From a virus (taxonomy: Duplodnaviria > Caudoviricetes): a stretch of 64,000 nt of DNA. The stretch spans positions 14,932-78,931 of IMG/VR virus record IMGVR_UViG_3300037453_000168. One strand, given 5' to 3'. Numbering within the stretch: the stretch's first letter is position 1; the number at the start of each line of letters is the position of its first letter. A program made the position numbers and the translations under genes. Below the pieces are notes generated by a model. The model saw nothing but the letters and a program-made list of their open reading frames with translations, was not told the DNA's origin and made no database searches. This document shows, piece by piece, positions 2,717 through 32,446 of this stretch.

Positions 2717-3634
2717 ATGGAAACGGTGCTTGTGAGCCATTCGGATTTGGACGGCTACGGCAACAACATCATAATATAGACCTATCTCGGGCATATACGT
2801 TCTTTCAATATCGGATACAGTGATTTGGAGACCGTGTTGGTTGCGTTGCCCGACAACATACAGCTAATCATCACGGACCTGTCGATTCCAGAGCGCACAT
2901 CCCCGATGCTGGAACGTTTCGCCCATGTGATAATAATAGACCACCATATCACGACCCAATGGGCGGTGGGATGGGCGGAGAGCACGGGCAACGAGGCCAT
3001 CGTGGATACGTCGAGGTGTGCCACATGGCTGACATACGAGTACATGAAATCGGTCTACGGGTTCGGCTCGGAGAAGATGACCTGTTGGGCCAGACTCATA
3101 GACGATTACGACAGATATGTTCTGCAATATCCCGAATCAAGACGTCTTAACGTGCTTTTCAACATAACGGCCGACCCGATAAGGTTCGTGAGGGACGGCA
3201 TGGAGAAACATCCCGAGACATTGCTGAACCGTGAGTCCGATGATATTGATTACTATCTCGAACAGCAGAGGAAGTACATAGACAAATCGACGATGTTCGT
3301 TCTCAACTACAAGCCGTAGGTCGTGATGACCTTCGCTGAAAGGCACAAATCCGCTATGGCGGAGATAGCGATTGCCGAGGGGGGTGTGGATTTGTTCTAC
3401 GGTGTAGACCTGCATTCGATGACGGTCTCGATACGTTCGTCTGTGAAATCCAAGATTGATTGCACCAAGGTGGCGAAGATGATTAATCCCGATGGCGGAG
3501 GCCATCGCAATGCCAGCGGTGCATCCATATCCAACTGGTGCGTCGGATGGAACAATGTGGAGGTCGGGACATTCTGTATGCCCCTGTCGTTCCCGTCGAG
3601 GGACCTGCCTACCTATTCGGAGGAATCGGAATGA
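2717..3634 (+). CDS. DHH/DHHA1 phosphoesterase with two internal TAG codons (2777-2779, 3317-3319)
   Basis: One frame joins SHSDLDG (motif I), IIIDHHI (DHH), LIDDYDRY and DHHA1 ISIRS...GGGHRNASG; the track fragments 2825..3319 and 3323..3634 share that frame; TGA overlaps next ATG 3631. Confidence 0.85.
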
Positions 3635-3822
3635 GAGCCATGCGCATAAACGGACACATAGTGAAATGCAAGATGTGCAGGAAATACAATGCATCTATGA
3701 TTTATTTGGGTGTGCCCGTATGCAATCGCTGTCTAAGGCCGTTCCTCATGGGATATCTATGCGGTAGGGCGAAAGCACTCGATTCAGATGAATCGGAGGA
3801 TTCCCGATGGTAGATGCGATAA
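3631..3822 (+). CDS. Small CxxC zinc-finger protein (TAG 3811 possibly read through)
   Basis: CKMC...CNRC; ATGA coupling with the DHH gene. Confidence 0.55.
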
Positions 3823-4115
3823 TCCGCAGATAGGAGATAATCCTGTTCCTGTATGACCACTCCCCGTTCGATTCATACACCGCACCATGGTCCACCACTC
3901 TGCTGGGATTGTCGGCTCATTACAAGTTGAATCGTACAACCATCAGCAACATCCTGAAATCCCTCATGGACAAGGGCCTGGTGGAACGCTCATTCAAGCA
4001 TACGATGGATAAGGGCATGGTCTCGGACAGGAAACGTAGGACCTGCTATTCTCTGACCAGCGATGGCAAGGAGATTGCAAAGCGTATAAAGGATATTAGG
4101 AGGGATTTGGAATGA
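3807..4115 (+). CDS. Winged-helix (MarR/ArsR-like) protein with internal TAG at 3831-3833
   Basis: GGAGGA 6 nt before ATG 3807; MVDAIIRR(TAG)EIILFLY runs in frame into TTISNILKSLMDKGLVER...YSLTSDG. Confidence 0.75.
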
Positions 4116-4423
4116 CCGAATACCTATGCAACATAAACAGGATTCTGGATACATTCGAGGCCATAATCAAGCATGATGGGAAGAATCTCGCTGACATCGT
4201 GAAGGACGAGGGATGGCAACCGTTGCGTTACCATATCGACGAGTTAATAGACAACGGACTCGCAAAGAAGTACCGCTACGGATACCGTGAGGTACATCTT
4301 ACACGCAAGGGATACGAGGTCTACGAACTTCTGAGACAGGCGAAGGAGCGCATGGACGATGACGATGGTGCCGACGAGTACCATATATTCGTGGATGCAG
4401 GCAAGAGAGGGTATGAGAGATGA
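4112..4423 (+). CDS. Winged-helix protein
   Basis: LRYHIDELIDNGLAKK...VHLTRKG; ATGA overlap. Confidence 0.7.
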   Translation: MTEYLCNINRILDTFEAIIKHDGKNLADIVKDEGWQPLRYHIDELIDNGLAKKYRYGYREVHLTRKGYEVYELLRQAKERMDDDDGADEYHIFVDAGKRGYER

Positions 4424-4445
4424 CCTTCGAGATGGAGGGGACGGT

Positions 4446-4985
4446 ATGACTGGCAGGCCTACGGACCTCACAGGGATGCGCTTCGGCAGGCTGACCGTCG
4501 TTGCATACGACGGACACAGGGGCAAGAGGAATTATTGGACGTGCGCTTGCGACTGTGGGGGGACGGCCGTCACCAGCTCAGGTTCCCTCATGCAAGGGCA
4601 TTCCCAATCATGCGGATGTCTTCGTCACGCGCCCCGTCCGAACAAGTGCAAACGGCTGGAGCACGACGGGGAATCACTGACCTATGACGAATGGGCGGAC
4701 CGTCTCGGAATGAATAGGGACACTATACGCACCTACGTCCGCTCGGGCATCCCTCTCGGCCATCTGGTAGAGAACGAAGGCCATGTGCGTATGGGGAGGT
4801 CGGGATTTCCACCGAGGGTATATTATCACGGCGACGTCGGATAGACCAGAACTGGATGGGCTGGATGTCTGGGCATCAGCACTACGTCTTTAAATCATCG
4901 CATACAGAAGGGCCAGTCCATCGGGGACATCATCGAGGACAGGATGAGGGAGCGCATCGTGCTCACGGTGGGGAGACCGGAATGA
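4446..4985 (+). CDS. Protein with HNH/AP2-endonuclease-associated N-terminal Cys domain plus two HTH-like repeats; internal TAG 4842-4844
   Basis: DLTGMRFGRLTV...WTCACDCG...SQSCGC; repeat 1 TYDEWADRLGMNRDTIRTYVRSG, repeat 2 after the TAG TRTGWAGCLGISTTSLNHRIQKG; readthrough TGA overlaps ATG 4982. Confidence 0.75.
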
Positions 4986-5188
4986 TACTTCACAATCAGA
5001 TACCAGATAAGACCGCCCTGACCATTGAGAAGGTGGATGAGGGCGAGGTCTATGTCGAGTGCACCATCAAGGCGATAATCAAAGCCTCGGAGATCCAGGA
5101 ACTATATGATACACTTGATGCGTGTTGTATCCAGATATTCGATTATGACCACAACGACGGAGACGATGAAGAGGAGGAAGAGGAATGA
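4982..5188 (+). CDS. Hypothetical protein
   Basis: ATGA-coupled; ends EEEEEE. Confidence 0.6.
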   Translation: MILHNQIPDKTALTIEKVDEGEVYVECTIKAIIKASEIQELYDTLDACCIQIFDYDHNDGDDEEEEEE

Positions 5189-5412
5189 AGACCCTCGGAA
5201 GGATTTACGGAACAGAGGGGACTTTCCTCGATAGGAATCCTCATTTCAAGGGGTATAATGACAGGATGGACCATATCGTGAAATGTCCAGAGTGCGGTCA
5301 GGGAATGGCATTCACAGACATTCTCAGAGTCAATCATAAATGGGGATGCCCACTCTGCAACAGATATATCAGTCATGTAACGGAGATTGTGAGAAGGGAG
5401 GAAGAAGAATGA
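5185..5412 (+). CDS. Zinc-ribbon protein
   Basis: CPECG...CPLC. Confidence 0.65.
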   Translation: MKTLGRIYGTEGTFLDRNPHFKGYNDRMDHIVKCPECGQGMAFTDILRVNHKWGCPLCNRYISHVTEIVRREEEE

Positions 5413-5768
5413 GCGGATACACAGGGCCGATAGGAGATGGGTACGGCTGGCAACCATGCCCTAAATGTGGGAGGGATGCCTTCATCTCATATAATGGGAT
5501 GAAATGCAATCATTGCGGATACAACACTTTTCCGAATATAACCACCAGCGACAGAAGTACAGGCTCCAATAGGGTCAATCTACCTCTTATAATCGACACT
5601 CCCGAACAATACGGCAGGATTGTGACAGGAGAGCAATCCGTATTGGAGGATTTGGTGCATATCGTAGCAAGGATTGCAATAAAATACCATGCAGACACGG
5701 ATTGCAGTGACATTTTCGACATGATAGATGCTTGCAGGAAGAAATTGAACATGGAGGGAGAGGAATGA
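5409..5768 (+). CDS. Zinc-ribbon protein
   Basis: PCPKCG...CNHCG; ATGA coupling. Confidence 0.65.
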   Translation: MSGYTGPIGDGYGWQPCPKCGRDAFISYNGMKCNHCGYNTFPNITTSDRSTGSNRVNLPLIIDTPEQYGRIVTGEQSVLEDLVHIVARIAIKYHADTDCSDIFDMIDACRKKLNMEGEE

Positions 5769-5986
5769 CTGAAAAATCAATACAGAGCATTAATTTGATG
5801 CTACTTGCTGGTAAATGTTTCGAGGAAATGGGCGTATATAAACAGGCTCTGACGTTTGTGAGCGATGGTGATGGCGTGAATGCTTATCTTGTGCTGACAT
5901 TCGATAAGAACCATCCAACTCCTCCCGAACTGTCTAAACCTATGATGAAGTATAGATTAGAACTATATGCGGAGGTAGAGGAATGA
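5765..5986 (+). CDS. Hypothetical protein
   Basis: GAGGAATGA junctions at both ends. Confidence 0.6.
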   Translation: MTEKSIQSINLMLLAGKCFEEMGVYKQALTFVSDGDGVNAYLVLTFDKNHPTPPELSKPMMKYRLELYAEVEE

Positions 5987-6168
5987 CCGAACTGAAACCG
6001 TGCCCCTTCTGCGGTTCAAACAATATAATCTGTCCATTGCCTTGGATAATTTCTTGCGATTCATGTGGGTTCGATTTCAGACCACCGAGCCATTTTGGAG
6101 AGGGCCTTACGGACAAGCAGAGATAGGGGCTCACAATCGAATATTGGAACAGGAGGGCGTCAGAATGA
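5983..6168 (+). CDS. Lar (restriction-alleviation)-like Zn protein with internal TAG 6124-6126; missed by ORF track
   Basis: MTELKPCPFCGS...CDSCG...DKQR(TAG)GLTIEYWNRRASE*; the family's WNRR motif lies after the TAG; TGA overlaps ATG 6165. Confidence 0.8.
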
Positions 6169-6344
6169 CATTCGTGAAACCCTGTCCGTTCTGCGGTGCA
6201 GAGGTCTCGATATACGACAGGAATGGGCGCACCAAGATAGACCACCCGGACGGAATCGAGTGCATCCTGAACGTGATGGAGAGCCAATGGTACGGCCCTA
6301 TTGGGGATTTTATCAGGGAATGGAACAGGAGGGTGGAGGAATGA
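6165..6344 (+). CDS. Lar-like protein
   Basis: VKPCPFCG...IREWNRR. Confidence 0.75.
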   Translation: MTFVKPCPFCGAEVSIYDRNGRTKIDHPDGIECILNVMESQWYGPIGDFIREWNRRVEE

Positions 6345-6517
6345 TAGTCACAGGTTATGAGATTAGAGACGAGATGAAAGGTTCGGCGGACAGGAAGAAC
6401 GTACAGGCCTGCATTGAAATCAAGGTGGTATCGTCGCTCGAGGAATACCAGCGTTTCATGCTGGCCTTGTCCGACGGGGCTTTCATTTTCAAAAGGATAT
6501 CGGAGGAGAAGGAATGA
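6341..6517 (+). CDS. Small hypothetical protein
   Basis: GGAGGAATGA coupling. Confidence 0.55.
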   Translation: MIVTGYEIRDEMKGSADRKNVQACIEIKVVSSLEEYQRFMLALSDGAFIFKRISEEKE

Positions 6518-6729
6518 CCAGACGCTACATCATACGCATCGGGGAACTCGGCCCGATGGAGGTCCTCGCCAAGCATCCGAGGGCGGTGGTCAACAGGTAC
6601 GTCACAGAGCCCGACACGGTGGCCATCGTCAGAGAGTCCATGTCTGACACGGGCAGGATGATGCTGTGGAGGGCCAACCGTACAGGGCTGACGGAACGCA
6701 TCGGCTGGATAATGGAGGCGGACGAATGA
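6514..6729 (+). CDS. Small hypothetical protein
   Basis: ATGA coupling. Confidence 0.55.
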   Translation: MTRRYIIRIGELGPMEVLAKHPRAVVNRYVTEPDTVAIVRESMSDTGRMMLWRANRTGLTERIGWIMEADE

Positions 6730-6905
6730 AGATATACGCTATATGTGAGATTTACCCCAATGAACCAGACATCATAATCAGGTACTATAAGACCAAGGAG
6801 GATGCGAAGTGGGGTCTGAACAAGCTGATGGCTGGTGAGGACGAGAGCTACGAATGGAATGAGTATGGCGAGTATGAGATAATCGAAATCGAGGTGGAGG
6901 AATGA
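6726..6905 (+). CDS. Small hypothetical protein
   Basis: MKIYAICE...YEIIEIEVEE; ATGA coupling. Confidence 0.6.
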   Translation: MKIYAICEIYPNEPDIIIRYYKTKEDAKWGLNKLMAGEDESYEWNEYGEYEIIEIEVEE

Positions 6906-7114
6906 CTGCTATTCAGGAGTATCGTGCATGGGTCAGAGCGATAACGAGATTATCAATCGCCATCAGTGCAATGGATACTGTCCCGTTCTTAGGAATCGGC
7001 CCAGAGTTTAGGGCGGAGTGTGAGGAATTATGGGAGAGGATGGATTCTCTGAAATCTAAGATGGAAACGAGGATAGAAGAAATGGAAAAAGAGCTAGAGG
7101 GGTGCAAGGAATGA
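6902..7114 (+). CDS. Small coiled-coil hypothetical protein
   Basis: ATGA coupling. Confidence 0.55.
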   Translation: MTAIQEYRAWVRAITRLSIAISAMDTVPFLGIGPEFRAECEELWERMDSLKSKMETRIEEMEKELEGCKE

Positions 7115-7311
7115 CAACCAAGATAACTTACTTCAATGCCAAGGTGAATAACACCGAGGATTATGGAACGCACATAAACATGGAGATTGGCATGAGATTG
7201 GAGGAAGAACAGTCGGTACAGTACCTTCTAACCGTGACCAAGCATGGATGCCAGATAGAGGAATACTGGAGGAAGAGGAATGATTTACACGAAGATGCTC
7301 GTGATGTGTGA
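7111..7311 (+). CDS. Small hypothetical protein
   Basis: ATGA coupling. Confidence 0.5.
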   Translation: MTTKITYFNAKVNNTEDYGTHINMEIGMRLEEEQSVQYLLTVTKHGCQIEEYWRKRNDLHEDARDV

Positions 7312-7522
7312 CGGATGCGGTGCAGAGATAGATATCGATGTGGCTCTTAGAGAACGTTCGTATGAAATCGACGGTTTCTCATTCTATTACCAGTTGCGCA
7401 AGCGTGGGTGGGGTAGAGTGGATGAGGGCATGTGCGATATGAAGCACTATTGTCCGCTTTGTCTGGCAAAAAAGAACTCGGCATCCGCAAACTGTTTGGA
7501 TAATGCGGAGGCGGAGGAATGA
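7280..7522 (+). CDS. Zinc-finger protein
   Basis: CDGCG...RKRGW...HYCPLC; GAGGAATG start. Confidence 0.65.
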   Translation: MIYTKMLVMCDGCGAEIDIDVALRERSYEIDGFSFYYQLRKRGWGRVDEGMCDMKHYCPLCLAKKNSASANCLDNAEAEE

Positions 7523-7728
7523 CCGAGAAACACAGATTCTACCTCAAGGTAGGATTCGACGTCTACGCCGATTGCGAGGACAATGCGGAGAACATCCTGT
7601 ACACGATGCTCGACCATATGCTCCTCGACCCGTTGAACAAGGATGGGGATGTGGAGGTCAGGAATTACTGGCCCGACATACTGGTGAGGGATTGCAACAA
7701 GGTAGGCAGACAGGAGGAAAAGGAATGA
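7519..7728 (+). CDS. Small hypothetical protein
   Basis: ATGA coupling. Confidence 0.55.
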   Translation: MTEKHRFYLKVGFDVYADCEDNAENILYTMLDHMLLDPLNKDGDVEVRNYWPDILVRDCNKVGRQEEKE

Positions 7729-7895
7729 CTGAATATGTTTGCTACGGCTGTAATAACTGTTGCTATCTGAATGAAGAGGACATGAGGGAGCATGGTATGA
7801 TGGATGAATGGGATGAGGATTATTCGGAGATTAATGACATCTGGTGTCCCTGTGGCGGATGTCGCACTTAGGTATGTAAGGAGGAAGAGGAATGA
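7725..7895 (+). CDS. Cys-rich microprotein with internal TAG 7869-7871
   Basis: CYGCNNCC...CPCGGCRT(TAG)VCKEEEE*; readthrough restores the usual EE*/GAGGAATGA junction. Confidence 0.65.
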
Positions 7896-8032
7896 AATGT
7901 TCCGAATGCGCTAATCTGATACGCACTCCATTGGGTCTAAGGTGCAGGTACGAGTGGGAACTATTGAGTAATCCCAGAGGCGGAGCTTGTGCGAGAGGAG
8001 AGAGGTTCGTACAGAAGGAGGCGGAGGAATGA
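7892..8032 (+). CDS. Cys-containing microprotein (46 aa), missed by ORF track
   Basis: MKCSECANLIRTPLGLRCRY...KEAEE*; coupled at both ends. Confidence 0.55.
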   Translation: MKCSECANLIRTPLGLRCRYEWELLSNPRGGACARGERFVQKEAEE

Positions 8033-8208
8033 CCGAATTGAAACCCTGTCCGTTCTGCGGTTCGTCAGATGTACACATGCGCGAAATAACCGACTACTGC
8101 CATTTTGCATTCAAGGGCATATTCTGCGACGGATGTTCAACCTTCCATGTAGCATGGATAAGCGACGAGAACAGGATAGAATCATGGAATAAGAGGGTGG
8201 AAGAATGA
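8029..8208 (+). CDS. Lar-like protein
   Basis: MTELKPCPFCGS...CDGC...IESWNKR. Confidence 0.75.
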   Translation: MTELKPCPFCGSSDVHMREITDYCHFAFKGIFCDGCSTFHVAWISDENRIESWNKRVEE

Positions 8209-20487: not shown

Positions 20488-20658
20488 ATGGTCTACGTAG
20501 GATTACAGAACTCGCACACGCTCGACGAATGCTATCTCAACATAGATTCCGAAATCAAGAGGACGTTGCGCTCGATTTAGCTCGACAACGGATGGAAGGA
20601 GATATACAGCATTTCATCCGAGCCGATTGTGACCAATCACTCCAAAGAGGTGGCTTGA
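20488..20658 (+). CDS. Small protein with internal TAG 20578-20580
   Basis: Readthrough ends GAGGTGGCT-TGA-ATG, abutting ORF 20659 just as the preceding gene abuts this one. Confidence 0.6.
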
Positions 20659-20904
20659 ATGGACTTCTGGCAAGCGATAAAGGAGATGGACAAGGGCAAG
20701 GTCGTTCAGATGTGCGTCAACCCCGAACGCTACTATCGTCTTGCATCCGATGGATGCACCATCGTCAATAAGCCCATACATGAGGATTGGGCGTACAAGG
20801 GCGAGGAATACGGAGGGGAATGGCGCAATGCCATCTTCACATCCACTCACATCAGGGGGAGTTGGATGGTCGTGGGAGAATGGAGGGATGGTCGCATATA
20901 CTAA
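20659..20904 (+). CDS. Small hypothetical protein
   Basis: MDFWQAIKEMDKGKVV; GAGGTG upstream. Confidence 0.6.
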   Translation: MDFWQAIKEMDKGKVVQMCVNPERYYRLASDGCTIVNKPIHEDWAYKGEEYGGEWRNAIFTSTHIRGSWMVVGEWRDGRIY

Positions 20905-21439: not shown

Positions 21440-22051
21440 TTGGTCGTTGTCGATAATGTCAGGTTGGAGAAGATTCCCATCGAGAAACTGATTCCCCATC
21501 CGAAGAATCCCCGTGTGGCTCTTACCAAAGGGAACCCCATCTATGAGAAACTATACACATCCATCCAGCATCACACATACATAGACCCGATTGTATGGAA
21601 CGAGCGTACAGGATACATCGTGGCTGGTCATCAGAGATTCCAAGTCCTGAAAGATATGGCGGACGAGGACGGAACGGTTCTGAAAGAGATTCCTGTCGTT
21701 GTCGTGAATCTATCGGACAAGGACGAATTGACTTATCTCACAGCCGATAACAAGATTCAGGGTCTATGGGACCCCGATAAGCTGTCCGCCCTGTTCAGAG
21801 AGTTGGAGGACGATGATTACGCCTATACGGGGTTCGACGATTTCGAGATTGCATCCCTTATAGACGATGAGGAACCCGATGTAGGCGACGATGTGATTAT
21901 CGACGATATAGAACCCAAGGGGTTCTCCGTAACGGTCGTGTGCGAATCGGATGACGATAAGGAATTCATGAAAAAGCTTTTCAACGAGGCGGTCAAGCTG
22001 AAAAGAAGATACACGGTATCCGAACTCAGGCTTGCAATCCCGAAGGAGTGA
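21440..22051 (+). CDS. ParB/Srx-like N-terminal domain protein
   Basis: LIPHPKNPR...DPIVWNERTGYIVAGHQR...DNK...WD. Confidence 0.8.
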   Translation: MVVVDNVRLEKIPIEKLIPHPKNPRVALTKGNPIYEKLYTSIQHHTYIDPIVWNERTGYIVAGHQRFQVLKDMADEDGTVLKEIPVVVVNLSDKDELTYLTADNKIQGLWDPDKLSALFRELEDDDYAYTGFDDFEIASLIDDEEPDVGDDVIIDDIEPKGFSVTVVCESDDDKEFMKKLFNEAVKLKRRYTVSELRLAIPKE

Positions 22052-22055
22052 TAAT

Positions 22056-22868
22056 ATGGCTAACAATGAAGATATAAAAGTGAACATCCAGACCGTGATG
22101 AAGAAACTGTCCGATATACACCCTTATGAGAACAATCCCCGTAACAACAAGGTCGCAGTCGATAAGGTCATCAGGTCCATCCAGCAGTTCGGATTCAAAG
22201 TACCCATCATCATAGACAATGACGGCACAATCGTGACAGGGCATACCCGTTATCTCGCATCCAAGAAACTCGGATTGAAGGAAGTGCCCTGCATCCTCGC
22301 AGACGATTTGACCCCCGAACAGATTAAAGCCTATCGCCTTGTCGATAACAAGGTATCCGAATATGCAACATGGGACGTACAGATGTTACAGAAGGAATTG
22401 AAGGATTTGGAGGACTTCGACCTGTCGGAGTATGATTTCGATGAGACATTGCAATCCGTCATAGATACGTCCGAAGAAGCGATACAGGAAGTCCAGCCAG
22501 AGAACCCCTATACATTCAAGATTCAGTTGCCTGAATATGAGGTGCAGGGTTGGGACGTCAATGCATCGGACCTTGTGAATACGGCACAGAGGGACAAACT
22601 TCTCAAAGAGATTAAGGGTGCGGACATACCCGACGATGTACGCATATTCCTCGAACTCGCATCGCAACGCCATCTTATCTTCGATTATACCAAGATTGCC
22701 GAGTTCTATGCACAGGCCGATGAAACGGTACAGGATTTGATGGAACGCTCAGGTCTTGTAATCATAGATTACGATAAGGCAATCCAATACGGATACATGA
22801 ACCTCGTCAAGGAAATCGAGGAATTGAGAGAGAACGATACCGAGGATGATGAGGACAATGAGGGATGA
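22056..22868 (+). CDS. ParB-like protein fused to a conserved C-terminal domain
   Basis: PYENNPR...GFKVPIIID...TGHTR...RLVDNK; C-terminus FLELASQRHLIFDYTKIAEFYA...SGLVIIDYDKAI. Confidence 0.8.
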   Translation: MANNEDIKVNIQTVMKKLSDIHPYENNPRNNKVAVDKVIRSIQQFGFKVPIIIDNDGTIVTGHTRYLASKKLGLKEVPCILADDLTPEQIKAYRLVDNKVSEYATWDVQMLQKELKDLEDFDLSEYDFDETLQSVIDTSEEAIQEVQPENPYTFKIQLPEYEVQGWDVNASDLVNTAQRDKLLKEIKGADIPDDVRIFLELASQRHLIFDYTKIAEFYAQADETVQDLMERSGLVIIDYDKAIQYGYMNLVKEIEELRENDTEDDEDNEG

Positions 22869-23757
22869 CTTCGCTGTATTCATCCTCACACACGGCAGAG
22901 CCGACCATGTGGTTACATACAATACTCTGAAACGTATGAACTATACAGGTAAGATAATCATACTCATAGATGACGAGGATTCCCAAGCCGACAGATACCG
23001 CCTCAATTTCTCCAATATGCCCAATACAGAGGTCGTACAGTTCGACAAGAAGGCTCGTGCGAGATTGACGCAGACCGCCGACAACCTCGACGAGAGGAAC
23101 TCGGTGATATATGCCCGTAACGAGTGTTTTGCCGTCGCACAGGAACGTGGGTTGTCGTATTTCCTTGAATTGGATGACGATTACGGCGGAATATATTTCC
23201 GCTATCCCAAGGACGGCATACTCAAAGCCGATTTCGTACAAGATTTCGATTCCGTATGCGAGTCTATGATTAGATTCTTGGATTCCTCCAAGGCTTGCAC
23301 CGTATGTTTCGCACAGGGAGGGGATTTCATCGGAGGTCTTGAAAAATACAACAATTGGGGAAATAAATCCCGTAAAGCTATGAACTCCTTCTTCTGTTGT
23401 ACCGCAAGACCGTTCAATTTCCTCGGTAGGATGAACGACGATGTGAACTCATACGTCACGCTCGGTTCGAGAGGCCACCTGTTCTGGACGATAAAGGAGA
23501 TATCTGTCAATCCAGCGCAGACACAGGCCGTAGAAGGGGGATTGACAGACATGTATCTGAAATATGGTACGTATGTCAAGTCTTATTATGCTGTCATATT
23601 CAACCCATCCTGTGTCAAGGTGGATTCGATGGGATGGACGAGAAGGAGGATACATCACAAAGTCTATTTTGATAATGCGGTCCCTAAGATTCTGTCGGAG
23701 AATATCAAGAAATCAGACAACATCGTCACTCCGATTTGCAAGGAGTATATGGTATGA
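22846..23757 (+). CDS. GT-A fold glycosyltransferase, GREB1/TET-associated (TAGT)-like, paralog 1
   Basis: FILTHGRAD, LELDDDY, QGGD, GRMNDDVNSY, QAVEGGLTDMY. Confidence 0.7.
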   Translation: MMRTMRDDFAVFILTHGRADHVVTYNTLKRMNYTGKIIILIDDEDSQADRYRLNFSNMPNTEVVQFDKKARARLTQTADNLDERNSVIYARNECFAVAQERGLSYFLELDDDYGGIYFRYPKDGILKADFVQDFDSVCESMIRFLDSSKACTVCFAQGGDFIGGLEKYNNWGNKSRKAMNSFFCCTARPFNFLGRMNDDVNSYVTLGSRGHLFWTIKEISVNPAQTQAVEGGLTDMYLKYGTYVKSYYAVIFNPSCVKVDSMGWTRRRIHHKVYFDNAVPKILSENIKKSDNIVTPICKEYMV

Positions 23758-24662
23758 CATCAGACGATATGTTCGCCATATTCATCCTCACATACAAACG
23801 TGCGGATAACCAGCTAACGCTCGAACATCTTAGGGAGGATTTGGGATACGAGGGCAAGATAATATTGCTGATAGGCGACGATGACCCCCAACAGGAGGAA
23901 TACAGGGCCACAGCATCCAGATATCCGAACACGGATGTATTCGTATTCGATAAATCGAAATCGATTCAGCATTCGGACGTATGCGACAACATCCAGAGAT
24001 TCAATACGGTCGTATTCGTCCGTTCCGAGGTATTCTATGTGGCAAGGGAACTCGGATACACATACTTCATGATTCTGGAAGATGATTACAGCAGTTATCT
24101 GTACCGTTATCCTGAGGATGGGATGCTGAGAAGTCGGAAGGTGCATGATATGGACGGAGTGATTTCCGCTATGCGCAGATTCTATGAATCCACAGATGTG
24201 ACCTCAATATCGTTCTCCATGGGAGGGGATTATATCGGGGGTCTTAGCAAGTATCTGAATTGGGGATACAAGCAGAGGAAGGTATGCAATTCGTTCTTCC
24301 ATTCCACAGACAGGCCGATGCGTTTCATAGCACGCATGAACGACGATATAGCCACTCAGGTCAATATGTCGCAGAGAGGGCATTGTTTCCTGTCTGTCCG
24401 TGAGATAGCCATACCTCAGCCTGAGACCATGACGCAGGAAGGAGGTCTTACAGATATGTACAACGCGAACGGAGAGTATCAAAAAGCATTCTATACCCTC
24501 ATAGCACAGCCATCATGTGTCAAGATAAGATATATGAGACATCTGAAACAGCCGATACATCATTCGGTATCGTACAATAACTGCACACCATGTATCCTGT
24601 CCGATGATATCAAGAAATCCAAGACCAGGATTACACCTATTTGCAAGGAGTATATAGCATGA
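23754..24662 (+). CDS. GT-A fold glycosyltransferase, GREB1/TAGT-like, paralog 2
   Basis: Collinear with paralog 1 (FILTYKRAD, ILEDDY, RMNDD, GGLTDMY, TPICKEY). Confidence 0.7.
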   Translation: MTSDDMFAIFILTYKRADNQLTLEHLREDLGYEGKIILLIGDDDPQQEEYRATASRYPNTDVFVFDKSKSIQHSDVCDNIQRFNTVVFVRSEVFYVARELGYTYFMILEDDYSSYLYRYPEDGMLRSRKVHDMDGVISAMRRFYESTDVTSISFSMGGDYIGGLSKYLNWGYKQRKVCNSFFHSTDRPMRFIARMNDDIATQVNMSQRGHCFLSVREIAIPQPETMTQEGGLTDMYNANGEYQKAFYTLIAQPSCVKIRYMRHLKQPIHHSVSYNNCTPCILSDDIKKSKTRITPICKEYIA

Positions 24663-25387
24663 AAGGAGTCGTACTGGCGGCTGGCGACGGCAAGCGTATA
24701 TCGGGATACCATGATTTCGCATCGAAGGTGCTGATAGAGATAGATGGTCAGCCTTTGATAATGTTGAATATGGAACGTATCTCCCCGTATGTCGATTCTT
24801 TCGTGGTCGTGGTAGGTAAAGCGAAGAAGGAGATTGTATCAAAGGTCGGATATGTATATGATGACAAACCTGTCTACTATGTGGAACAGGAGGTCAGAGA
24901 TGGACCTCTCGGTGCTTTGAGATGCGCCTACGACCTCATAAAGAACGATGATTGCATAATCGTGCTTGCGGACGAATATATCATAGGCGATAGGATTCGC
25001 CAGACAGTAGAGATATTCAACAGACGTTATCCCGATGCCATACTCGGAGTCATACCTGATTCCAAAAAGGAGGATATCGCTCAGACATACTCCATAGAAT
25101 ATCTGTCGGACAATTACGGCAACCCCCACAAAGGGGATTGCGTCAAGAGATTGGTCGAGAAACCCAAGACGTTCCCGAACTCGATAAGAGGTACAGGATA
25201 TTATTTCGTATCCGAATATGTGATTCGCAAGATTCCCCATGTCAAGGCGAGGAAGAACGGCCAGTATGAGATTACCGACCTGTTCAGCTATGTCCTGAAA
25301 GGCGGAGGTACAATCATAACCCGTACAATCGCAGAGAAGGCATACAATATAAATTCGATTGAAGTATTGAACGAGTTGATAGGTTGA
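24659..25387 (+). CDS. Sugar-phosphate nucleotidyltransferase (RmlA/GalU-like)
   Basis: VVLAAGDGKR, LVEKP, GQYEITD. Confidence 0.85.
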   Translation: MKGVVLAAGDGKRISGYHDFASKVLIEIDGQPLIMLNMERISPYVDSFVVVVGKAKKEIVSKVGYVYDDKPVYYVEQEVRDGPLGALRCAYDLIKNDDCIIVLADEYIIGDRIRQTVEIFNRRYPDAILGVIPDSKKEDIAQTYSIEYLSDNYGNPHKGDCVKRLVEKPKTFPNSIRGTGYYFVSEYVIRKIPHVKARKNGQYEITDLFSYVLKGGGTIITRTIAEKAYNINSIEVLNELIG

Positions 25388-25788
25388 GGACGAACAAGCC
25401 AGTATTCGAACCGATGAATCCCAAGGGCTGGGATAAGCATTTCATCGTGGCAATAGATTACGACGGTACTCTGACCTCTAAACGTGACGGCAGTATAGAT
25501 AAGGTCGCAATCCAATACGTCAAGAACATCCGTGACCTCGGATGCGTAATCATCCTATGGACGTCGAGATATGACGAACTTCTCGACAAGGCTATTGCGG
25601 AATGTTCCAAGAGAGGTTTGGAGTTCGATTATGTCAATTCCAATCCTCTACGCCATTCATCGGACAAGGTATCCGCCGACATATATATAGATGACAAATC
25701 CGAGATAGGCCCGATACCTTGGATAAAATGGATTGATTTCATTCAAAAACAGCTTTCACTCAAAGAATATATCCTGATGGAGAGGTAA
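25384..25788 (+). CDS. Cap-less HAD-family phosphatase
   Basis: IVAIDYDGT, IILWTSR, ADIYIDDK. Confidence 0.8.
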   Translation: MRTNKPVFEPMNPKGWDKHFIVAIDYDGTLTSKRDGSIDKVAIQYVKNIRDLGCVIILWTSRYDELLDKAIAECSKRGLEFDYVNSNPLRHSSDKVSADIYIDDKSEIGPIPWIKWIDFIQKQLSLKEYILMER

Positions 25789-25789
25789 T

Positions 25790-26740
25790 ATGGCCGACAA
25801 CATTTCTTCGGATAAACTGATGTATCACATGGCTCATGTGGTCGAAGGACTCCCCATAACCTGCAATTGGTTTCTGAACGATGTATGCAACAACAGATGC
25901 ACCTATTGTAATTTCGCACGTCACATGAACAGGGATGGCAACAATATATCGTATCTTGATTTTGTGAAGTATGCGAACAGATTGAAGGAAATCGGTGTGA
26001 AGGGAATCATACTCGAGGGCGGAGGGGAACCTACTATATGTCCCGACTTCGAGAAGATGACCCAATATCTGGATTGTATCTCCATACCGTACATCATTCT
26101 GACCAACTTCAATGAATACAGAGAGGTAAAGCCAGAGGTTCTGAGGGTGTCCCTCGATGCTTGGTCGGAGGACACATACAAGGCGAAGAGAGGGGTCAGC
26201 AGATACAATAAGGTCAGGGACAATATAATCCGCTATGCTAAATGGAGGGATGAGCATTCACCCGATACAGAGATAGGCATCCAACTTGTCACCTGCGATA
26301 CGTCGGAGATATTGCCGTTCTACGAGGGCAACAAGGATTTACCTGTCGATTACATAACGATAAAGCCGTATGAGTCCACCAACTGCACGTTCTACGATGG
26401 CAAGGACGATGCAATCGCCGAGCAGAACGCCATAATCAAGGCTCTGTCGGAGAAGGATTCCCGTATAGTCTATAATTACAAGTGGCGTGACCTCAACCAT
26501 CGTTTCTCGGAATGCTACGCTCATGCGAATCAAATCGGACTAAGGTGGGACGGTGCGGTCATGTGCTGTTGCCATCGTCCCTACGATGTGCTGGGGAATA
26601 TAATGGACGAGGATATCCTTGTGAAGAACCGTCAGACCAGATTCGATATGTCCAAATGCGACGTTCCGTGCAGACTGACTGGGCCTAACACATTATTGGA
26701 GAATCTGAACAGAGGATGCAAGAATCAGAACTTCATCTAA
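25790..26740 (+). CDS. Radical SAM protein with Cys-rich SPASM/twitch-like C-terminus
   Basis: CNNRCTYC, EGGGEPT, C-terminal C...DGAVMCCCH...C...C. Confidence 0.85.
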   Translation: MADNISSDKLMYHMAHVVEGLPITCNWFLNDVCNNRCTYCNFARHMNRDGNNISYLDFVKYANRLKEIGVKGIILEGGGEPTICPDFEKMTQYLDCISIPYIILTNFNEYREVKPEVLRVSLDAWSEDTYKAKRGVSRYNKVRDNIIRYAKWRDEHSPDTEIGIQLVTCDTSEILPFYEGNKDLPVDYITIKPYESTNCTFYDGKDDAIAEQNAIIKALSEKDSRIVYNYKWRDLNHRFSECYAHANQIGLRWDGAVMCCCHRPYDVLGNIMDEDILVKNRQTRFDMSKCDVPCRLTGPNTLLENLNRGCKNQNFI

Positions 26741-26771: not shown

Positions 26772-27269
26772 ATGCCTAAATCGTATAAGACCGACGAATT
26801 ACAGGAGTATCTTCAATCCAAGAAGGGATTGAACGAGATTACCGAGCAGTCCCGTAGCGGTAAGACCCTCGCAGAGATATCCGAGCATTTCGGGATTGCC
26901 CGTACCACACTATACACATGGTCCAAGAAATATCCTGAGATTCAATCGGCATTATCCGAGGGAAAGCACGTTGCGGATGACCGTGTGGAGCAATCCCTGT
27001 ACGAATCCTGTTTCGGACGTACCGAGAAGGAGGTCACGGTGGAGAAGGACAGGGACGGCAATGTGATTAAATCCATAGTCCGCACCCGTTACATCCCTCC
27101 GAACATCACGGCAATCCAATATTGGTTATCTAATCGTCGCAACGACACATGGAAGGCAAGACAGCAGTTGGAGTTCGCACCCGATACCAAACTGCCTGTG
27201 ATGTTCGTAGAGGATATACCAAACCCGTTCATCAAGAAAGATGTCGAAGAAAAAGACGCATCCGAATGA
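26772..27269 (+). CDS. terS: Terminase small subunit
   Basis: HTH (EISEHFGIARTTLYTWSKKYPE), PPNITAIQYWLSNRR; directly before the large subunit. Confidence 0.8.
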   Translation: MPKSYKTDELQEYLQSKKGLNEITEQSRSGKTLAEISEHFGIARTTLYTWSKKYPEIQSALSEGKHVADDRVEQSLYESCFGRTEKEVTVEKDRDGNVIKSIVRTRYIPPNITAIQYWLSNRRNDTWKARQQLEFAPDTKLPVMFVEDIPNPFIKKDVEEKDASE

Positions 27270-28638
27270 CCTCGAAAGCGAGAACGCATTGGAAGTGCCA
27301 CAGTTCAGGCAATTCAACATATCAAAGCTGATAGGTCAGGGTTATGACGAGTACTGGTGGTGGCACGGCAGATATGCGGTATGCAAGGGCAGTCGTGCCA
27401 GCAAGAAGTCGTTCACAACAGCGTATTGGATAATACTCAATATGATGAAATACCCCCTTGCGAACACGCTCGTGGTCCGCAAGGTTTCGGGTACTAACAA
27501 GGACTCCACATTCGCTCTGTTGATGCAGATTATATACTCGCTCGGTCTGGATGACGAATGGTACGCTCATATATCCCCTTTGGAGATAATATGCCGTAAG
27601 ACCCATCAGAAGATTCTGTTCAGGGGACTGGACGAACCTCAGAAACTATCGTCCATAACCGTGGAGAGAGGGGTCCTATGCTGGATGTGGGTGGAGGAGG
27701 CATATCAGATTACCAACGAGGCCGATTTCGACATTGTCGACCAGTCGATACGCGGTCAGATGCCAGAGGGATATTTCCCACACATAATGATTACATTCAA
27801 TCCTTGGCACAGGGAACATTGGCTCAAAAGAAGGTTCTTCGATACCCCGAACAAGGAGACCCTTGCCATGACTACGAACTATCTGATAAACGAGTTCATA
27901 TCTGATTTCGATAAGAGCTATTTCGAGGATTTGAAAGAACGCAATCCCCGTCTATATCAGGTCGCTGGATTGGGGGATTGGGGAGTGTCCGAGGGTCTGA
28001 TTTATTCCGATTGGGAGGAAAGGGAGTTCGATGTGGGCGAGATTATGAAACGCAACACCGTTCTCGCCCTGTTCGGGCTGGATTTCGGATTCACAGACCC
28101 GACAGCATTCGTCGCTCTGATGCTCGATACCGCAACCCGTACAATATACGTCTATGACGAATGGTATCAGACAGGAGTGCATAACATAGATATCGCCAAC
28201 AAATTGAAGGAAATGGGGTATCAGAACGAGCGTATCGTATGCGATTCGGCACAGCCTGAGTCGATATACGAATTGCAGACCCTTGGTCTTTCCAGAGTCA
28301 CAGGTGCGATAAAAGGTCAAGATTCGGTAGAGTGGGGCATCCAGAAATGCCAGCAGTACCATGTCGTGATTCTTCCCAAATGCGTCAATTTCCTCACAGA
28401 GATTTCGATGTATGCCTATGACCAGGACCGCATGGGTAAATTGATGAACAGGCCCTGTCATGATTTCAGCCACGGCATGGATGCTTGGAGATATGCCGTA
28501 TCCGAGATGCTGTATCGTACAGGACAGATAGAAGGGCTGGTTATCGGGCCGAAGGAAGATGCTCAATCAACGGTGTATCAAAGGAACAGGGCGGAATCAG
28601 AGCATCCAGAGGAATTTGTATCCAAATATGTATTTTAA
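27241..28638 (+). CDS. terL: Terminase large subunit, PBSX-like
   Basis: KGSRASKKS, WMWVEEA, TFNP, GLDFGF.DP, HGMDAWRY. Confidence 0.95.
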   Translation: MSKKKTHPNDLESENALEVPQFRQFNISKLIGQGYDEYWWWHGRYAVCKGSRASKKSFTTAYWIILNMMKYPLANTLVVRKVSGTNKDSTFALLMQIIYSLGLDDEWYAHISPLEIICRKTHQKILFRGLDEPQKLSSITVERGVLCWMWVEEAYQITNEADFDIVDQSIRGQMPEGYFPHIMITFNPWHREHWLKRRFFDTPNKETLAMTTNYLINEFISDFDKSYFEDLKERNPRLYQVAGLGDWGVSEGLIYSDWEEREFDVGEIMKRNTVLALFGLDFGFTDPTAFVALMLDTATRTIYVYDEWYQTGVHNIDIANKLKEMGYQNERIVCDSAQPESIYELQTLGLSRVTGAIKGQDSVEWGIQKCQQYHVVILPKCVNFLTEISMYAYDQDRMGKLMNRPCHDFSHGMDAWRYAVSEMLYRTGQIEGLVIGPKEDAQSTVYQRNRAESEHPEEFVSKYVF

Positions 28639-28656
28639 AGAATATATTTTATATAC
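28638..28656 (+). promoter_or_regulatory. Early-class promoter with no adjacent ORF
   Basis: AAGAATATATTTTATATAC, identical to modules 1 and 3. Confidence 0.6.
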
Positions 28657-28783
28657 TTCAATATTTATTACATCATTGGGATATCCGAACCCGTGTGAAG
28701 TACATCCCATTCCATCTCGCTTTTACATGACGGGTATCCCTTTTACCAGCCTGATAATTTAAAGAAATCTTATAAGGGAGTAG

Positions 28784-30559
28784 ATGGATTGTCGAGGTAT
28801 GCTATCCACCACACATCTGTCGAAATCGAAGAATAAGCCGAAATCGTCAGAGGTCGCATCGCCCAATCTTCCGAAGAGCGTCATGGGTCTTTCGACCGCT
28901 GAATCATTCGATAAGGGTGTGGTGCAAGAGGTGGAAGTGGTCGGAAGACCATCGAACATCATCTGGAGATTGAATAACCGTTCGTTCTGGTGGCAATTCT
29001 ATTCCCTTATGGATTTCTACCGTTCCGAGGTATCAATACTCGACACCATCATCTCTCGTTCCGTGACCGAGATATTCAGATACGGGATAGATTTCGAGCC
29101 TGCGTTCGTAGTCAAATGTGTGGATTGCGGTAACGAATATCAGAACAACGTGAAGGTATGCCCCTACTGCAACTCCACGAGATTGGTAAAGCCAGAGGAA
29201 AAGCAGAAGGATTATTTCGTCAGACCTGACGGCACATCGTTCCTCGAAGAATGCAACGAGAACCAGCAATCCCTCAAAGACCTGTGCAGAATGTATGCCG
29301 AATCCCAATACCAGAACAATCAGGCATATCTTCTCGTAATAACAGGTGATGTGATTGACAATGAGACCAAGCAGTTGAAACATTCCTATCCGTTGGAATT
29401 CATCTGCATCGACCCTAAATTCGTCCGTTATCTGTATGACGAGCATGCCGAGCCAGGAGAGTTATATGGGTTCACAATGAACGACAGACGCACTCTGATT
29501 ACCCTACCTCATGACGGGGATTTGGTCACTACGACACCAGACGGGGAGGTAATCTATCCAGCATACTGGCAGGTCGGAGACTCCTTCGGTGCTGGCGGAC
29601 CGTATATATCGTACACGAAGGACGAGATATACCAGAACCATTGGTTCAGGCAGTCCATGACCTACGGGATACCCCATTGGCTCTCAATCGAGGACGATTT
29701 GCTCACCTATCATTACATCGAGAAACATAACCTGAAGAAATACAAGTACGGATACGTCCGTAAGATTGTGGTTCTCCCAGGATACGATGTGAATGTAATC
29801 AAGGATGTAGCACAGGGGATACAGAACGTTCTGGCGAAGAACGACAACTCCGTTCCGATAGTCGGATTACCGCCAGCACCCCCAGGCACGAGTCCACAGC
29901 CAGCATCCACCCTCGAAATGGGTGCGGAATCGGGTTCAGACCTCATACAGACCAAGAACGACATCCGTGACAGGCTATGCGCCCATGCTGGTGTCCCCAA
30001 TCTGTTCGCTGGCGACGTGGAGAACGGCGGAGGACTCAACAACGAGTCACAGCAGATTACGACCTTCGACCGTTATCTAATGGACAAATATGATTACACG
30101 GATGATATGCTGGATTGGATTCTTTCGTGGTTCCCCAAGATTACGGATTGGAAACTGAGAGTCAAAAGACCCTCAAAGGCCGACCAAGCCAATAAGCAAC
30201 TTCAAGAGGAAATCCAGATTGCACAGGGCATGAAGAACCTCGGATTCCAAATCACATACACCAACGGAGAGTTCACATACTCCGAGAAACCCGTCGATAT
30301 GGGCATGGGGATGGGCGGAATGGGCGGAGGTATGGACCCTGCGCAGAACACGGATATAGGATTCAGAGGCATGCTTGGGGCTGGCGGACTCGGTAACGAT
30401 ACCGAGCAGATGGATACGAAAGGAGAGGTCGGAGAATATGAGGACGATGCCTATCAGCAGTACCAAGCATCCAAGGATGCAAAGCTAAGGAAGGCTGGTA
30501 GTTCCTTTCGCCTATCTCAAGGGGACCTCAGAAGAGCAATATCTCAAATACATCGGTAA
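28784..30559 (+). CDS. Portal protein
   Basis: Position after terL, 591 aa, RDRLCAHAGVP near the C-terminal third; Zn-ribbon insert CVDCG...CPYC. Confidence 0.8.
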   Translation: MDCRGMLSTTHLSKSKNKPKSSEVASPNLPKSVMGLSTAESFDKGVVQEVEVVGRPSNIIWRLNNRSFWWQFYSLMDFYRSEVSILDTIISRSVTEIFRYGIDFEPAFVVKCVDCGNEYQNNVKVCPYCNSTRLVKPEEKQKDYFVRPDGTSFLEECNENQQSLKDLCRMYAESQYQNNQAYLLVITGDVIDNETKQLKHSYPLEFICIDPKFVRYLYDEHAEPGELYGFTMNDRRTLITLPHDGDLVTTTPDGEVIYPAYWQVGDSFGAGGPYISYTKDEIYQNHWFRQSMTYGIPHWLSIEDDLLTYHYIEKHNLKKYKYGYVRKIVVLPGYDVNVIKDVAQGIQNVLAKNDNSVPIVGLPPAPPGTSPQPASTLEMGAESGSDLIQTKNDIRDRLCAHAGVPNLFAGDVENGGGLNNESQQITTFDRYLMDKYDYTDDMLDWILSWFPKITDWKLRVKRPSKADQANKQLQEEIQIAQGMKNLGFQITYTNGEFTYSEKPVDMGMGMGGMGGGMDPAQNTDIGFRGMLGAGGLGNDTEQMDTKGEVGEYEDDAYQQYQASKDAKLRKAGSSFRLSQGDLRRAISQIHR

Positions 30560-30671
30560 GGATGTCTACGGATTCCTCCGCAATCACAAGGAGGACATCG
30601 CCCAAGTCCTCGCAGTCGGATTCGATGTTGCAGATACGATACTGCCCAACGGCACGCATCCGTTCGTCGAT

Positions 30672-31730
30672 ATGACCTTCGATGAGGTCAAGGAGATGTA
30701 CATCGGTATGATTGAGGTATTGCAGAAACCCCAATGGTCGGTGCAGGAGATTAGGGACGTAGTTTACAATTCATGCGCCAAGTACCGTGATGCGGAGAGA
30801 GGGGATGCCGAGATACGTAACATGGTCAAGCGTATCGCTCAGACCGAGATGAACCGCATACTTTTCTATGCGAAGGAGCAGGAGGCCATCGAGTCGGGAG
30901 CGACGGATTCATACTTCATCTGGGCTGGCCCGATAGACAGGCGCATGACCCCTATGTGCCGTTTCCTGCAAACGGGGGAATTGAAAGGGGAGAACAACAG
31001 GGGCGAACCTTACGATTACGAGGAACTCCGTAGCGAACTCCCCGAATGGAGGGAGGAAGGATGGACTCTGCCCGAATTGAAGGTGATTTGCCGTCAGGTG
31101 CATGATGTGTTCTATGCTCACGATGTGGTCAAGACCCCGATGCTATCCGATTGGCAGATGCACATAAACTGCCGTCACACGTTCGGATACTCGATGAAAG
31201 CACCCAAGCTCGATGCACCGATAGAGGTCGATGGATGGATACAGGTGGATAACGCACAGGAATCGCCTGCAAGCGACGAGAAACCCCCCGAATATGTAGG
31301 CATACCTCCATCGTTGCAAACCCCCTCAGAACCGAAGGAATACGCTTGGGATGGACCGTTGCAGATTGAGTTCGTAGGGGATGCCGTCATGCAAGCCGAC
31401 GATACCGATGACATAGACATCTTCGAGACGCCTTTGGCTCAATACACGTTCGGGATAGAGCATCCTATGAGGAACGTACCCCTGTTCATACTTCCCGAAT
31501 CGACGGAGAACGACGAATCCGCCATCTTCCAATTCTCCACCGTGAACGAGTTCCAGTTGGGCTCATGGCTCAGATTCGTCATAGAGGAATTGGATGCTGG
31601 ATTGGATATGCCTGTGATAGTGGATGTGCTGAACAGCGAATCGGGTATGACCTATCAGGAGATAGGATACATACAGAGACATTGGGATTGGCTGTTCGAC
31701 GTCGCCCTCGATATGGGATGGATACTATGA
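30672..31730 (+). CDS. Head morphogenesis (Mu gpF/SPP1 gp7-like) protein; frame open back to 30489
   Basis: DRRMTPMCR...HINCRH motifs after portal. Confidence 0.75.
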   Translation: MTFDEVKEMYIGMIEVLQKPQWSVQEIRDVVYNSCAKYRDAERGDAEIRNMVKRIAQTEMNRILFYAKEQEAIESGATDSYFIWAGPIDRRMTPMCRFLQTGELKGENNRGEPYDYEELRSELPEWREEGWTLPELKVICRQVHDVFYAHDVVKTPMLSDWQMHINCRHTFGYSMKAPKLDAPIEVDGWIQVDNAQESPASDEKPPEYVGIPPSLQTPSEPKEYAWDGPLQIEFVGDAVMQADDTDDIDIFETPLAQYTFGIEHPMRNVPLFILPESTENDESAIFQFSTVNEFQLGSWLRFVIEELDAGLDMPVIVDVLNSESGMTYQEIGYIQRHWDWLFDVALDMGWIL

Positions 31731-32446
31731 CCGTAGCGACCCTCAACATCCAATGGAAGGTCGAAATAAGCACCAAGGATTTGAGGGACTATATGAAGTC
31801 GCAGAAACGTCTACAGCCTTGGTGCTGTGTCATAGGCACGAAACAGGCCGAGTGGATGGAGTTCGGGACATCCCCTGCGACAAGGGCGGATTGCGAGTAC
31901 CCGAGCATGAGCGACCCCCAGTTCTATGTGATGAAGGGCAGGGGCAAGAACAGGAAACCCACGTTCGACCCTGTTCTCTATTATAAGGAAGTGTATCGCC
32001 GTTCGGAGTTCTACCGCAACATATACGATTGGGTCAATCTGAAAGGCGCACCCAACGTAAGCCAGAAGGAGAAATACGAGATTGCTTGGAGGATGTGCCG
32101 TATAATCGCAAAGAACGGGTTGAAACCCCGTCCGTTCTTCCGTCCAGCATTCTATTACATGTGCGCACATATACAGGAATGGTGGAATGACGGATAGAGC
32201 ATCGAGCAGATGGTATATTGCATGGAGAAGAAGGTGGACCAGTTCATAAGGGAGAACCCTACCGACGGGCTTTCGGATTTACAGCGCAACCTCAACTTCT
32301 CTGGTGCCATGAGGATGTCGTTGCATTCGTTCGCAATACCCGACGAGGATGTGCCGAGGGCGTTGAATCCGCCCGTCAATCCGAGGCCGATAGCCAACGA
32401 CTTATCAGAGGATAGGGCGAGGGCTACGGGAGAGAGATACCGATGA
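31727..32446 (+). CDS. HK97 gp10-like neck/tail-completion protein with internal TAG 32195-32197
   Basis: EFGT...KPRPFFRPAF; track ORFs 31565..32197 and 32210..32446 share a frame; readthrough TGA overlaps ATG 32443. Confidence 0.65.

Follow-up and report, generated by a model that had tools for sequence, protein, structure and literature searches.

The genome of a tailed virus of the class Caudoviricetes, represented in IMG/VR by record IMGVR_UViG_3300037453_000168 (78,931 bp), uses TAG as a sense codon according to the evidence presented below, and these codons are likely to be decoded by the pyrrolysine (Pyl) tRNA of the host, as in the archaeal Genetic Code 34. The window analysed comprises 64,000 nucleotides (nt), corresponding to bases 14932-78931 of the record; positions are given in window coordinates unless contig nt are indicated. 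As judged from homologues and profiles, TAG lies within at least six conserved genes. The first-pass annotation of the window had proposed a Pyl-recoded archaeal virus, and the reading of TAG as sense is supported; Pyl as the inserted residue, a Pyl-decoding methanogen as the host of this virus itself and not just of its family, and the completeness of decoding are what we infer. The virus is most likely one of Methanomassiliicoccales, in particular of gut or rumen Methanomethylophilaceae.

All twelve positions listed in the first-pass annotation were confirmed to be TAG, each in frame with an open reading frame (ORF) continuing to TGA or TAA, namely, 2777, 3317, 3831, 4842, 6124, 7869, 20578 and 32195, as well as the positions 1681, 3811, 11862 and 45787, which had been considered weaker. 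Homologues or profiles support seven TAGs: 2777, 3317, 6124, 32195, 11862, 4842 (more weakly) and one outside the window, at contig nt 1556. The DHH/DHHA1 phosphoesterase, containing two TAGs, has Pfam matches to the domains DHH (amino acids (aa) 8-118) and DHHA1 (aa 239-277). Its motifs are reunited by read-through, as had been claimed: DLDGYG (aa 14-19), located before the first TAG, DHH (aa 79-81), located between the TAGs, and GGGH (aa 264-267), located after the second TAG, fall on three code-11 fragments of one protein of 309 aa. Thirteen full-length homologues (299-320 aa, 39-56% identical) are uninterrupted across both TAGs. The AlphaFold model of the read-through protein, with a predicted local distance difference test (pLDDT) score of 90.2, represents one two-domain enzyme, aligned by Foldseek over its full length to NrnA, PAP phosphatase and pGpG phosphodiesterases. 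No relatives of the DHH protein were found in IMG/VR.

The Lar-like protein is likewise completed by read-through, with the start at position 5983. The read-through product matches the profile PF14354 (Lar_restr_allev) over positions 1-58 of 58 with 40.9 bits, and the product cut at the TAG with 27.2 bits, the cut-off being 28.6 bits; the WNRR tail, located after the TAG, is common to homologues in loci L040 and L042. For the winged helix-turn-helix (HTH) regulator, showing matches to TrmB, PadR, MarR and EarA-like proteins over aa 8-99, the proposed link between a strong Shine-Dalgarno sequence and the domain holds: GGAGG is located 7 nt upstream of ATG 3807, the sole start with a Shine-Dalgarno sequence, which precedes TAG 3831, and the next in-frame start past the TAG is TTG 3909, within the winged-HTH domain. 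The head-region protein aligns with the gene L007:4770-5567 across TAG 32195 and 80 residues beyond it (36% identity, expect value (E) 8e-51). The 71-aa protein aligns with a 70-aa gene, L005:5221-5433, with the five post-TAG residues kept and a common end point, and TAG 11862 is accordingly moved from the weak to the supported positions on this homologue evidence. The TAG at contig nt 1556 is located in a block 51-60% identical to three relatives, including Caudoviricetes sp. vir335 (BK063680, from baboon faeces).

The second HTH-like repeat predicted for the gene 4446..4985 is weakly supported. An internal repeat is present, the post-TAG peptide resembling the preceding HTH-like stretch (25% identity and 61% positives over 28 aa, E 3e-4 in a single comparison), but no homologue covers the post-TAG part, the homologues found being limited to the N-terminal domain. 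TAG 4842 recurs in an independent ENA assembly, in which a 99% identical gene call of 132 aa, P0127, ends at that TAG. Among the remaining genes, the protein 3631..3822 is a short-extension case with a weak double-zinc-ribbon match; homologues of the 223-aa protein in L003 and L004 align only as far as residue 179; the small Cys-rich protein has an acidic post-TAG tail resembling the tails of neighbouring small genes, with no homologue found; for the ORF 20488..20658, the codon-usage score of the extension is positive, and no homologue was found. The coordinates of the genes are given in Table 1.

Table 1. TAG-bearing genes and marker genes of the virus (window coordinates unless stated otherwise).
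Feature	Position	Strand	TAG	Remarks
Protein, 223 aa	1036..1707	+	1681	7 codons after TAG; short-extension case
DHH/DHHA1 phosphoesterase, 309 aa	2705..3634	+	2777 (codon 25), 3317 (codon 205)	
Small zinc-ribbon protein	3631..3822	+	3811	TAG followed by two codons, then TAA; ATGA at 3631 overlaps TGA of the DHH gene
Winged-HTH regulator, 102 aa	3807..4115	+	3831 (codon 9)	Ends in ATGA at 4112
Zinc-ribbon and HTH protein	4446..4985	+	4842	46 codons after TAG; ends in ATGA at 4982
Lar-like restriction-alleviation protein, 61 aa	5983..6168	+	6124 (codon 48)	Ends in ATGA at 6165
Small Cys-rich protein	7725..7895	+	7869	7 codons after TAG; start inferred; ATGA at 7725 and 7892
Protein, 71 aa	11667..11882	+	11862	5 codons after TAG
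ORF, 56 aa	20488..20658	+	20578 (codon 31)	25 more codons; TGAATG at 20656-20661
Large terminase subunit	27241..28638	+	None	Pfam Terminase_3 and Terminase_3C
Portal protein	28784..30559	+	None	Match to vir335 portal, 43.9% identical
Head-region protein, ~239 aa	31727..32446	+	32195	Start inferred from ATGA at 31727; ends in ATGA at 32443
Major capsid protein	40183..41406	+	None	Match to HK97-fold capsid protein of vir335, 45.2% identical; 89 homologues
ORF, 44 codons	45706-45840		45787	Between two genes; no homologue; doubtful as a gene
Tape measure protein	55876-58503			
Small zinc-ribbon gene outside the window	contig nt 1499-1789		contig nt 1556	

For the whole contig of 78.9 kb, gene ends were counted after code-11 gene calling with a simple program based on codon usage. 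The 106 gene ends are represented by TGA (76), TAA (25) and TAG (5); TAG accounts for 20.6% of stop trinucleotides in any frame, and the binomial probability of five or fewer TAG ends among 106 is 3e-6. One of the five TAG ends is an internal TAG of the DHH gene; the others, at -2673 (outside the window), 1681, 11862 and 20578, are backed by a TGA located 0 (directly after the TAG), 7, 5 and 25 codons further on, respectively. True TAG gene ends number at most 3-4 of 106, each with a back-up stop, against an expected share of about 21%. Neither the five TAG-ending calls nor the twelve listed TAGs produce a long out-of-frame overlap on read-through, the extensions stopping before or exactly at the next gene, and for 9 of the 12 ORFs, read-through leads to a junction of the form ATGA or TGAATG. 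The exact coupling claimed for five of these ends was found at ATGA 4982, 6165, 7892 and 32443 and at TGAATG 20656-20661, with a real downstream ORF after each (20659-20904 for the last one); a real gene also starts at the junction 4112 and at one more junction outside the window. Re-calling of genes with TAG as sense, suggested in the first-pass annotation, gave no gain in coding density, which is 0.855 under code 11 and 0.847 with TAG as sense for the same caller.

Rare use of TAG as a terminator extends to the relatives of the virus, where the share of TAG ends is 0-3%. In vir335, as annotated, 107 genes end in TGA (95), TAA (9) and TAG (3), and each of three relatives of 79-91 kb has one TAG-ending gene among 72-81 genes, two of these three TAGs being internal, with 322 and 355 codons after them. 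On the host side, a rough 140-kb sample of the genome G005, processed with a naive caller, gave TGA 94, TAA 11 and TAG 8, which is suggestive only. Internal TAGs were also observed in related viral contigs of methanogen metagenome-assembled genomes (MAGs), at G005:C2 nt 61067 and G002:C199 nt 74291; one internal TAG of the relatives is located in the gene of DNA primase (His in the vir335 column), and another in the gene of a Tad2-like protein (Asp in the L005 column).

Residues aligned with the TAGs are mixed. In 12 homologues, the column of the first DHH TAG contains M/Q/F/F/M/Q/M/Q/M/V/S/K (Gln in 3 of 12), and that of the second, K/R/L/C/N/R/N/A/D/D/N/S; the other columns contain E/C/G (contig nt 1556), R (11862) and L/L/G (32195). 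In an all-against-all comparison, filtered for antisense shadow frames, the residues opposite TAGs were E, C, G, M, F, Q, K, L, A, R, L, L, G, D, H and others, with Gln only once. TAGs that precede the portal start by a short distance in L008 and L021 were left out of the comparison, being probably non-coding. In the proposed test of Lys-like residues against Gln, the mixed columns do not fit the Gln dominance that code 15 would produce, and alignment does not single out the inserted residue. Because relatives have sense codons at the columns where the virus has TAG, the TAGs are recent and occupy columns of low conservation. A single base change separates TAG from several of the opposite residues (Glu, Lys, Leu and Gln) in the closest homologues. 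Such a pattern fits the scenario put forward for 'Ca. M. alvus' (PMC4153887), in which amber mutations arising in a suppressing background are fixed neutrally.

The TAGs are unevenly distributed. Eight of the twelve are located in an early block of 11 kb (binomial P 4e-5), comprising genes of regulators, zinc-ribbon proteins, the Lar-like protein and the DHH enzyme, and none was found in the large structural genes. From this distribution, selection against TAG seems to persist in genes that are essential or strongly expressed; incomplete read-through, as in Methanosarcina (PMC12626013), or the bulk of Pyl as a substitute could be the cause.

The host lineage was traced with the structural genes, the major capsid protein being the marker for the virus family and its hosts. 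The sole match of the portal protein in a set of 50,697 phage records is vir335, the host of which is Methanomassiliicoccales; for the capsid protein, the only matches in this set are vir335 and, at a greater distance, a virus of Methanofastidiosa. The terminase is less specific, being also ~45% identical to terminases of Firmicutes phages. Vir335 is, like the virus studied, a tailed virus of ~80 kb, with portal, capsid and terminase proteins 44-45% identical to those of the virus and TGA-dominated stops. The two viruses are, however, distant relatives, of family level at most, with a guanine-plus-cytosine content of 58% in vir335 versus 48.5% in the virus studied, and vir335 was annotated with the standard code. 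A single-sequence capsid query of genome contigs gave no match, whereas an alignment-based query, with a profile of 18 homologues, revealed five real relatives among 185,579 species genomes, namely, in two MAGs of Methanomethylophilaceae, one MAG of Methanomassiliicoccaceae and two MAGs labelled as bacteria. All five genomes contain genes of PylS (above the curated cut-off) and McrA and were grouped in one order. The two bacteria-labelled genomes, L013 (CAVHQB010000113.1, 'Lachnospiraceae bacterium') and L015 (CAVICI010000002.1, 'Dialister hominis'), carry McrA and PylS and were grouped with Methanomassiliicoccales; their labels look wrong, or their bins mixed. In about a dozen further genomes of the order, DNA 64-83% identical to the genes of the terminase, portal or capsid protein is present.

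A cloverleaf-like sequence of ~71 nt with the anticodon CUA immediately precedes pylS in all three loci examined by motif search and folding. We take it to be tRNA-Pyl on the basis of its anticodon, position and fold and of the 'Ca. M. alvus' sequence; no tRNA next to pylS was detected by ARAGORN or Rfam. On the three relative contigs of 79-91 kb, no CUA tRNA was found. Accordingly, the portal and capsid matches, together with the PylS- and McrA-containing genomes, point to the same Pyl-using methanogens, Methanomassiliicoccales, that had been guessed as the host lineage. As based on related sequences, the assignment holds for the virus family and the host order only.

The contig probably represents an essentially complete genome of ~78.8 kb, circular or terminally redundant, because its two ends share an overlap of 126 bp, bases 1-126 recurring without mismatch at -144 to -19, counted from the contig end (window 63857-63982). 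Only the last 18 bases deviate, being an inverted copy of a nearby stretch and probably an assembly artefact. All credible genes of the window are located on the + strand. No tRNA was detected by ARAGORN in the window or in the whole contig, and PylS is not encoded on the contig.

A mechanism consistent with these data may be proposed. The hosts would constantly express tRNA-Pyl (anticodon CUA), PylRS and the genes of Pyl synthesis, and some of them would read every UAG as pyrrolysine, according to the proposed Genetic Code 34. The virus, having no tRNA or Pyl genes of its own, would be translated by the host machinery. TAG would consequently be purged as a terminator, gene ends being TGA or TAA and near-end TAGs being backed by a stop 0 to 7 codons later, while chance TAG mutations at tolerant positions would be non-lethal and would be retained as infrequent sense codons, chiefly in early or accessory genes of small size. 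In the best-supported reading, TAG purging, back-up stops and tolerated internal TAGs would all arise because Pyl-tRNA(CUA) reads UAG efficiently.

Code 34 was proposed for Methanomethylophilus, Methanogranum and Methanoplasma (Kivenson et al., 10.1101/2024.09.30.615893). As in Code 34 genomes, internal TAGs in conserved genes ('Category 1') and short-extension TAGs ('Category 2') are present in the virus, long out-of-frame read-through overlaps ('Category 4') are absent, and only TGA and TAA are reliable stops; as in Pyl-decoding archaeal genomes (Code 34; PMC4153887), TAG codons are located at variable positions. In 'Ca. M. alvus', TAG represents 1.6% of stops, and amber mutations arising in frame are stably kept (PMC4153887). 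Unlike Code 34 genomes, the genome studied is that of a virus without Pyl machinery of its own, which would be wholly host-dependent, and the incorporation of Pyl into its proteins is predicted. That viral proteins hold pyrrolysine, as those of the first Pyl-code viruses, and that the early clustering of TAGs could tie infection to methylamine metabolism via the pool of charged tRNA-Pyl, is a combination we consider rather unlikely; if true, regulators and anti-restriction genes with TAGs, and structural genes without them, would make early expression depend on charged tRNA-Pyl.

Several points weigh against decoding of the viral TAGs by host Pyl-tRNA. The TAGs 1681, 3811, 7869, 20578 and 45787 have no homology support, and the short-extension TAGs could be working stops if decoding were ambiguous, as it is in Methanosarcina (PMC12626013). 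The mixed aligned residues exclude nothing but Gln dominance. The link of the relatives to their hosts rests on MAG-binned contigs, and binning of viral contigs is unreliable. The proposed host assignment by clustered regularly interspaced short palindromic repeats (CRISPR) spacer or provirus failed for this virus, no spacer or integrated copy having been found when positions 1-60000 of the 64,000-nt window were compared with 261 Methanomassiliicoccales genomes. The record is, furthermore, classed as linear in IMG/VR and as 75% complete by CheckV.

Ambiguous decoding, a variant of host Pyl decoding rather than its opposite, would imply competition between Pyl-tRNA and the release factor, with truncated and full-length products, near-end TAGs acting as leaky stops and termination dominant at most sites. 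A dual meaning of UAG is found in Methanosarcina acetivorans, a cellular organism, in which no special RNA signal is needed for UAG to be read as Pyl (Shalvarjian et al. 2025, PMC12626013); each viral TAG gene may likewise yield two products. The location of five TAGs 0 to 7 codons ahead of TGA or TAA, the absence of TAG from the large highly expressed structural genes and the concentration of 8 of 12 TAGs in the early block agree with such decoding. Nevertheless, termination at 2777 or 3317 would split the catalytic motifs of the DHH enzyme, and at 3831 would leave a peptide of 8 residues; in relatives, a TAG is located within DNA primase, and in gut Methanomethylophilaceae every TAG is reportedly read as Pyl (10.1101/2024.09.30.615893). 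Dominant termination is therefore unlikely.

Viruses with in-frame TAGs in real genes are also represented by code-15 phages, such as crAss-like and Lak phages. These usually have suppressor tRNAs, recoding mainly of late genes, a large density gain under code 15 and bacterial hosts with the standard code. By analogy, TAG in the virus studied could be read as Gln, or another standard residue, by a suppressor tRNA, either viral or supplied by a host that does not use Pyl. TAG-to-Gln recoding is reported to be widespread in gut phages and to have been validated by proteomics (10.1101/2022.01.06.475225); the terminase similarity to Firmicutes phages and the three Gln residues among 12 homologues at the first DHH TAG point in the same direction. 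In contrast to code-15 phages, the virus has no tRNA on a contig with overlapping ends, as its relatives have no CUA tRNA, and shows no rise in coding density with TAG as sense; its TAGs are located in early accessory genes and not in late ones, Gln was opposite a TAG once only in the shadow-filtered comparison, the portal and capsid proteins are related to those of archaeal viruses only, and the code would be that of the host. The Gln alternative, retained in the first-pass annotation, is thus disfavoured by the lack of a suppressor tRNA, the mixed residues and the early-gene TAGs, and is very improbable.

That the TAGs are real stops, in pseudogenes or split genes of a decaying accessory region or due to sequencing errors, deserves hardly any credence: their concentration in small, probably dispensable early genes and their lack of conservation, with sense codons in relatives, would agree with this, but every interruption is TAG, never TAA, TGA or a frameshift, 104, 82 and 13 codons after the TAGs are conserved in frame by homology or profile in the DHH gene, the gene 31727..32446 and the Lar-like gene, respectively, gene-end coupling is restored by read-through, TAG is avoided as a terminator family-wide, and TAG 4842 recurs in an independent assembly.

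To our knowledge, UAG as pyrrolysine, partial or genome-wide, has been established or proposed for cells only, and viral stop-codon recoding is known only from bacteriophages, with TAG read as Gln or TGA as Trp. Both Pyl decoding in hosts and stop-codon recoding in phages are already known. No paper describing such a TAG-as-sense archaeal virus was found in the literature, and viruses of this kind are mentioned neither in 10.1101/2024.09.30.615893, which is silent on viruses altogether, nor in PMC4153887 (Borrel et al. 2014). No alternative code was reported by a survey of 2026 that covered 3,708 archaeal viral genomes and required a density gain of >5-10% (PMC13465236). Coding-density screens miss such genomes, and the genome studied, having no density gain, would fail the criterion of the survey. 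Decoding of the viral TAGs by host Pyl-tRNA, if true, would extend the 22nd amino acid to viral proteomes and would provide a sequence-only marker for assigning viruses to Pyl-decoding hosts. Public gene calls for the virus are truncated or split at each TAG, as in the 132-aa call P0127.

Further features of the genome were observed. A tail protein of 949 aa (window 58500-61349) contains an adhesin-like domain, the repeat Flg_new_2 (PF18998, 31.4 bits); the Flg_new domain has been reported for gut Methanomassiliicoccales and their viruses (PMC10673518), in line with the proposed host lineage. Several palindromes are scarce in the whole contig relative to the Markov expectation, in particular GATC (6 observed, 531 expected), CCGG (7 and 273), CTAG (10 and 91) and CGCG (28 and 162), which points to strong pressure of restriction systems.

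A cassette resembling those for DNA hypermodification was found at 21515-26740, containing genes of two ParB_N-like proteins, a sugar nucleotidyltransferase, a HAD-like protein, a radical SAM enzyme and two TET-associated glycosyltransferases (22846-23757 and 23754-24662); a TET/JBP dioxygenase was not among the products identified in the cassette. Homologues of the HAD-like protein and the radical SAM enzyme, 39% and 59% identical, respectively, are located on G186:C1, a Methanomassiliicoccales contig of 202 kb.

Seven short high-identity matches to Methanomassiliicoccales genomes were considered as spacers and rejected, since none of the retrieved sequences is located in a repeat array; further short matches, several of which fall on one and the same query spot (27021-27059, 34950-34989, 8013-8077 and 5153-5196), look like purine-rich, low-complexity or conserved gene ends and not like spacers. 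The last two spots are junction pieces of a series of tiny genes (window 4982-8100) encoding CxxC zinc-ribbon proteins, each with an acidic tail at the C-terminus, in which the purine-rich tail codons serve also as the Shine-Dalgarno sequence of the next ATGA-coupled gene. These pieces have matches at a number of sites on Methanomassiliicoccales chromosomes, such as the five in G129:C1 at ~1.055-1.059 Mb.

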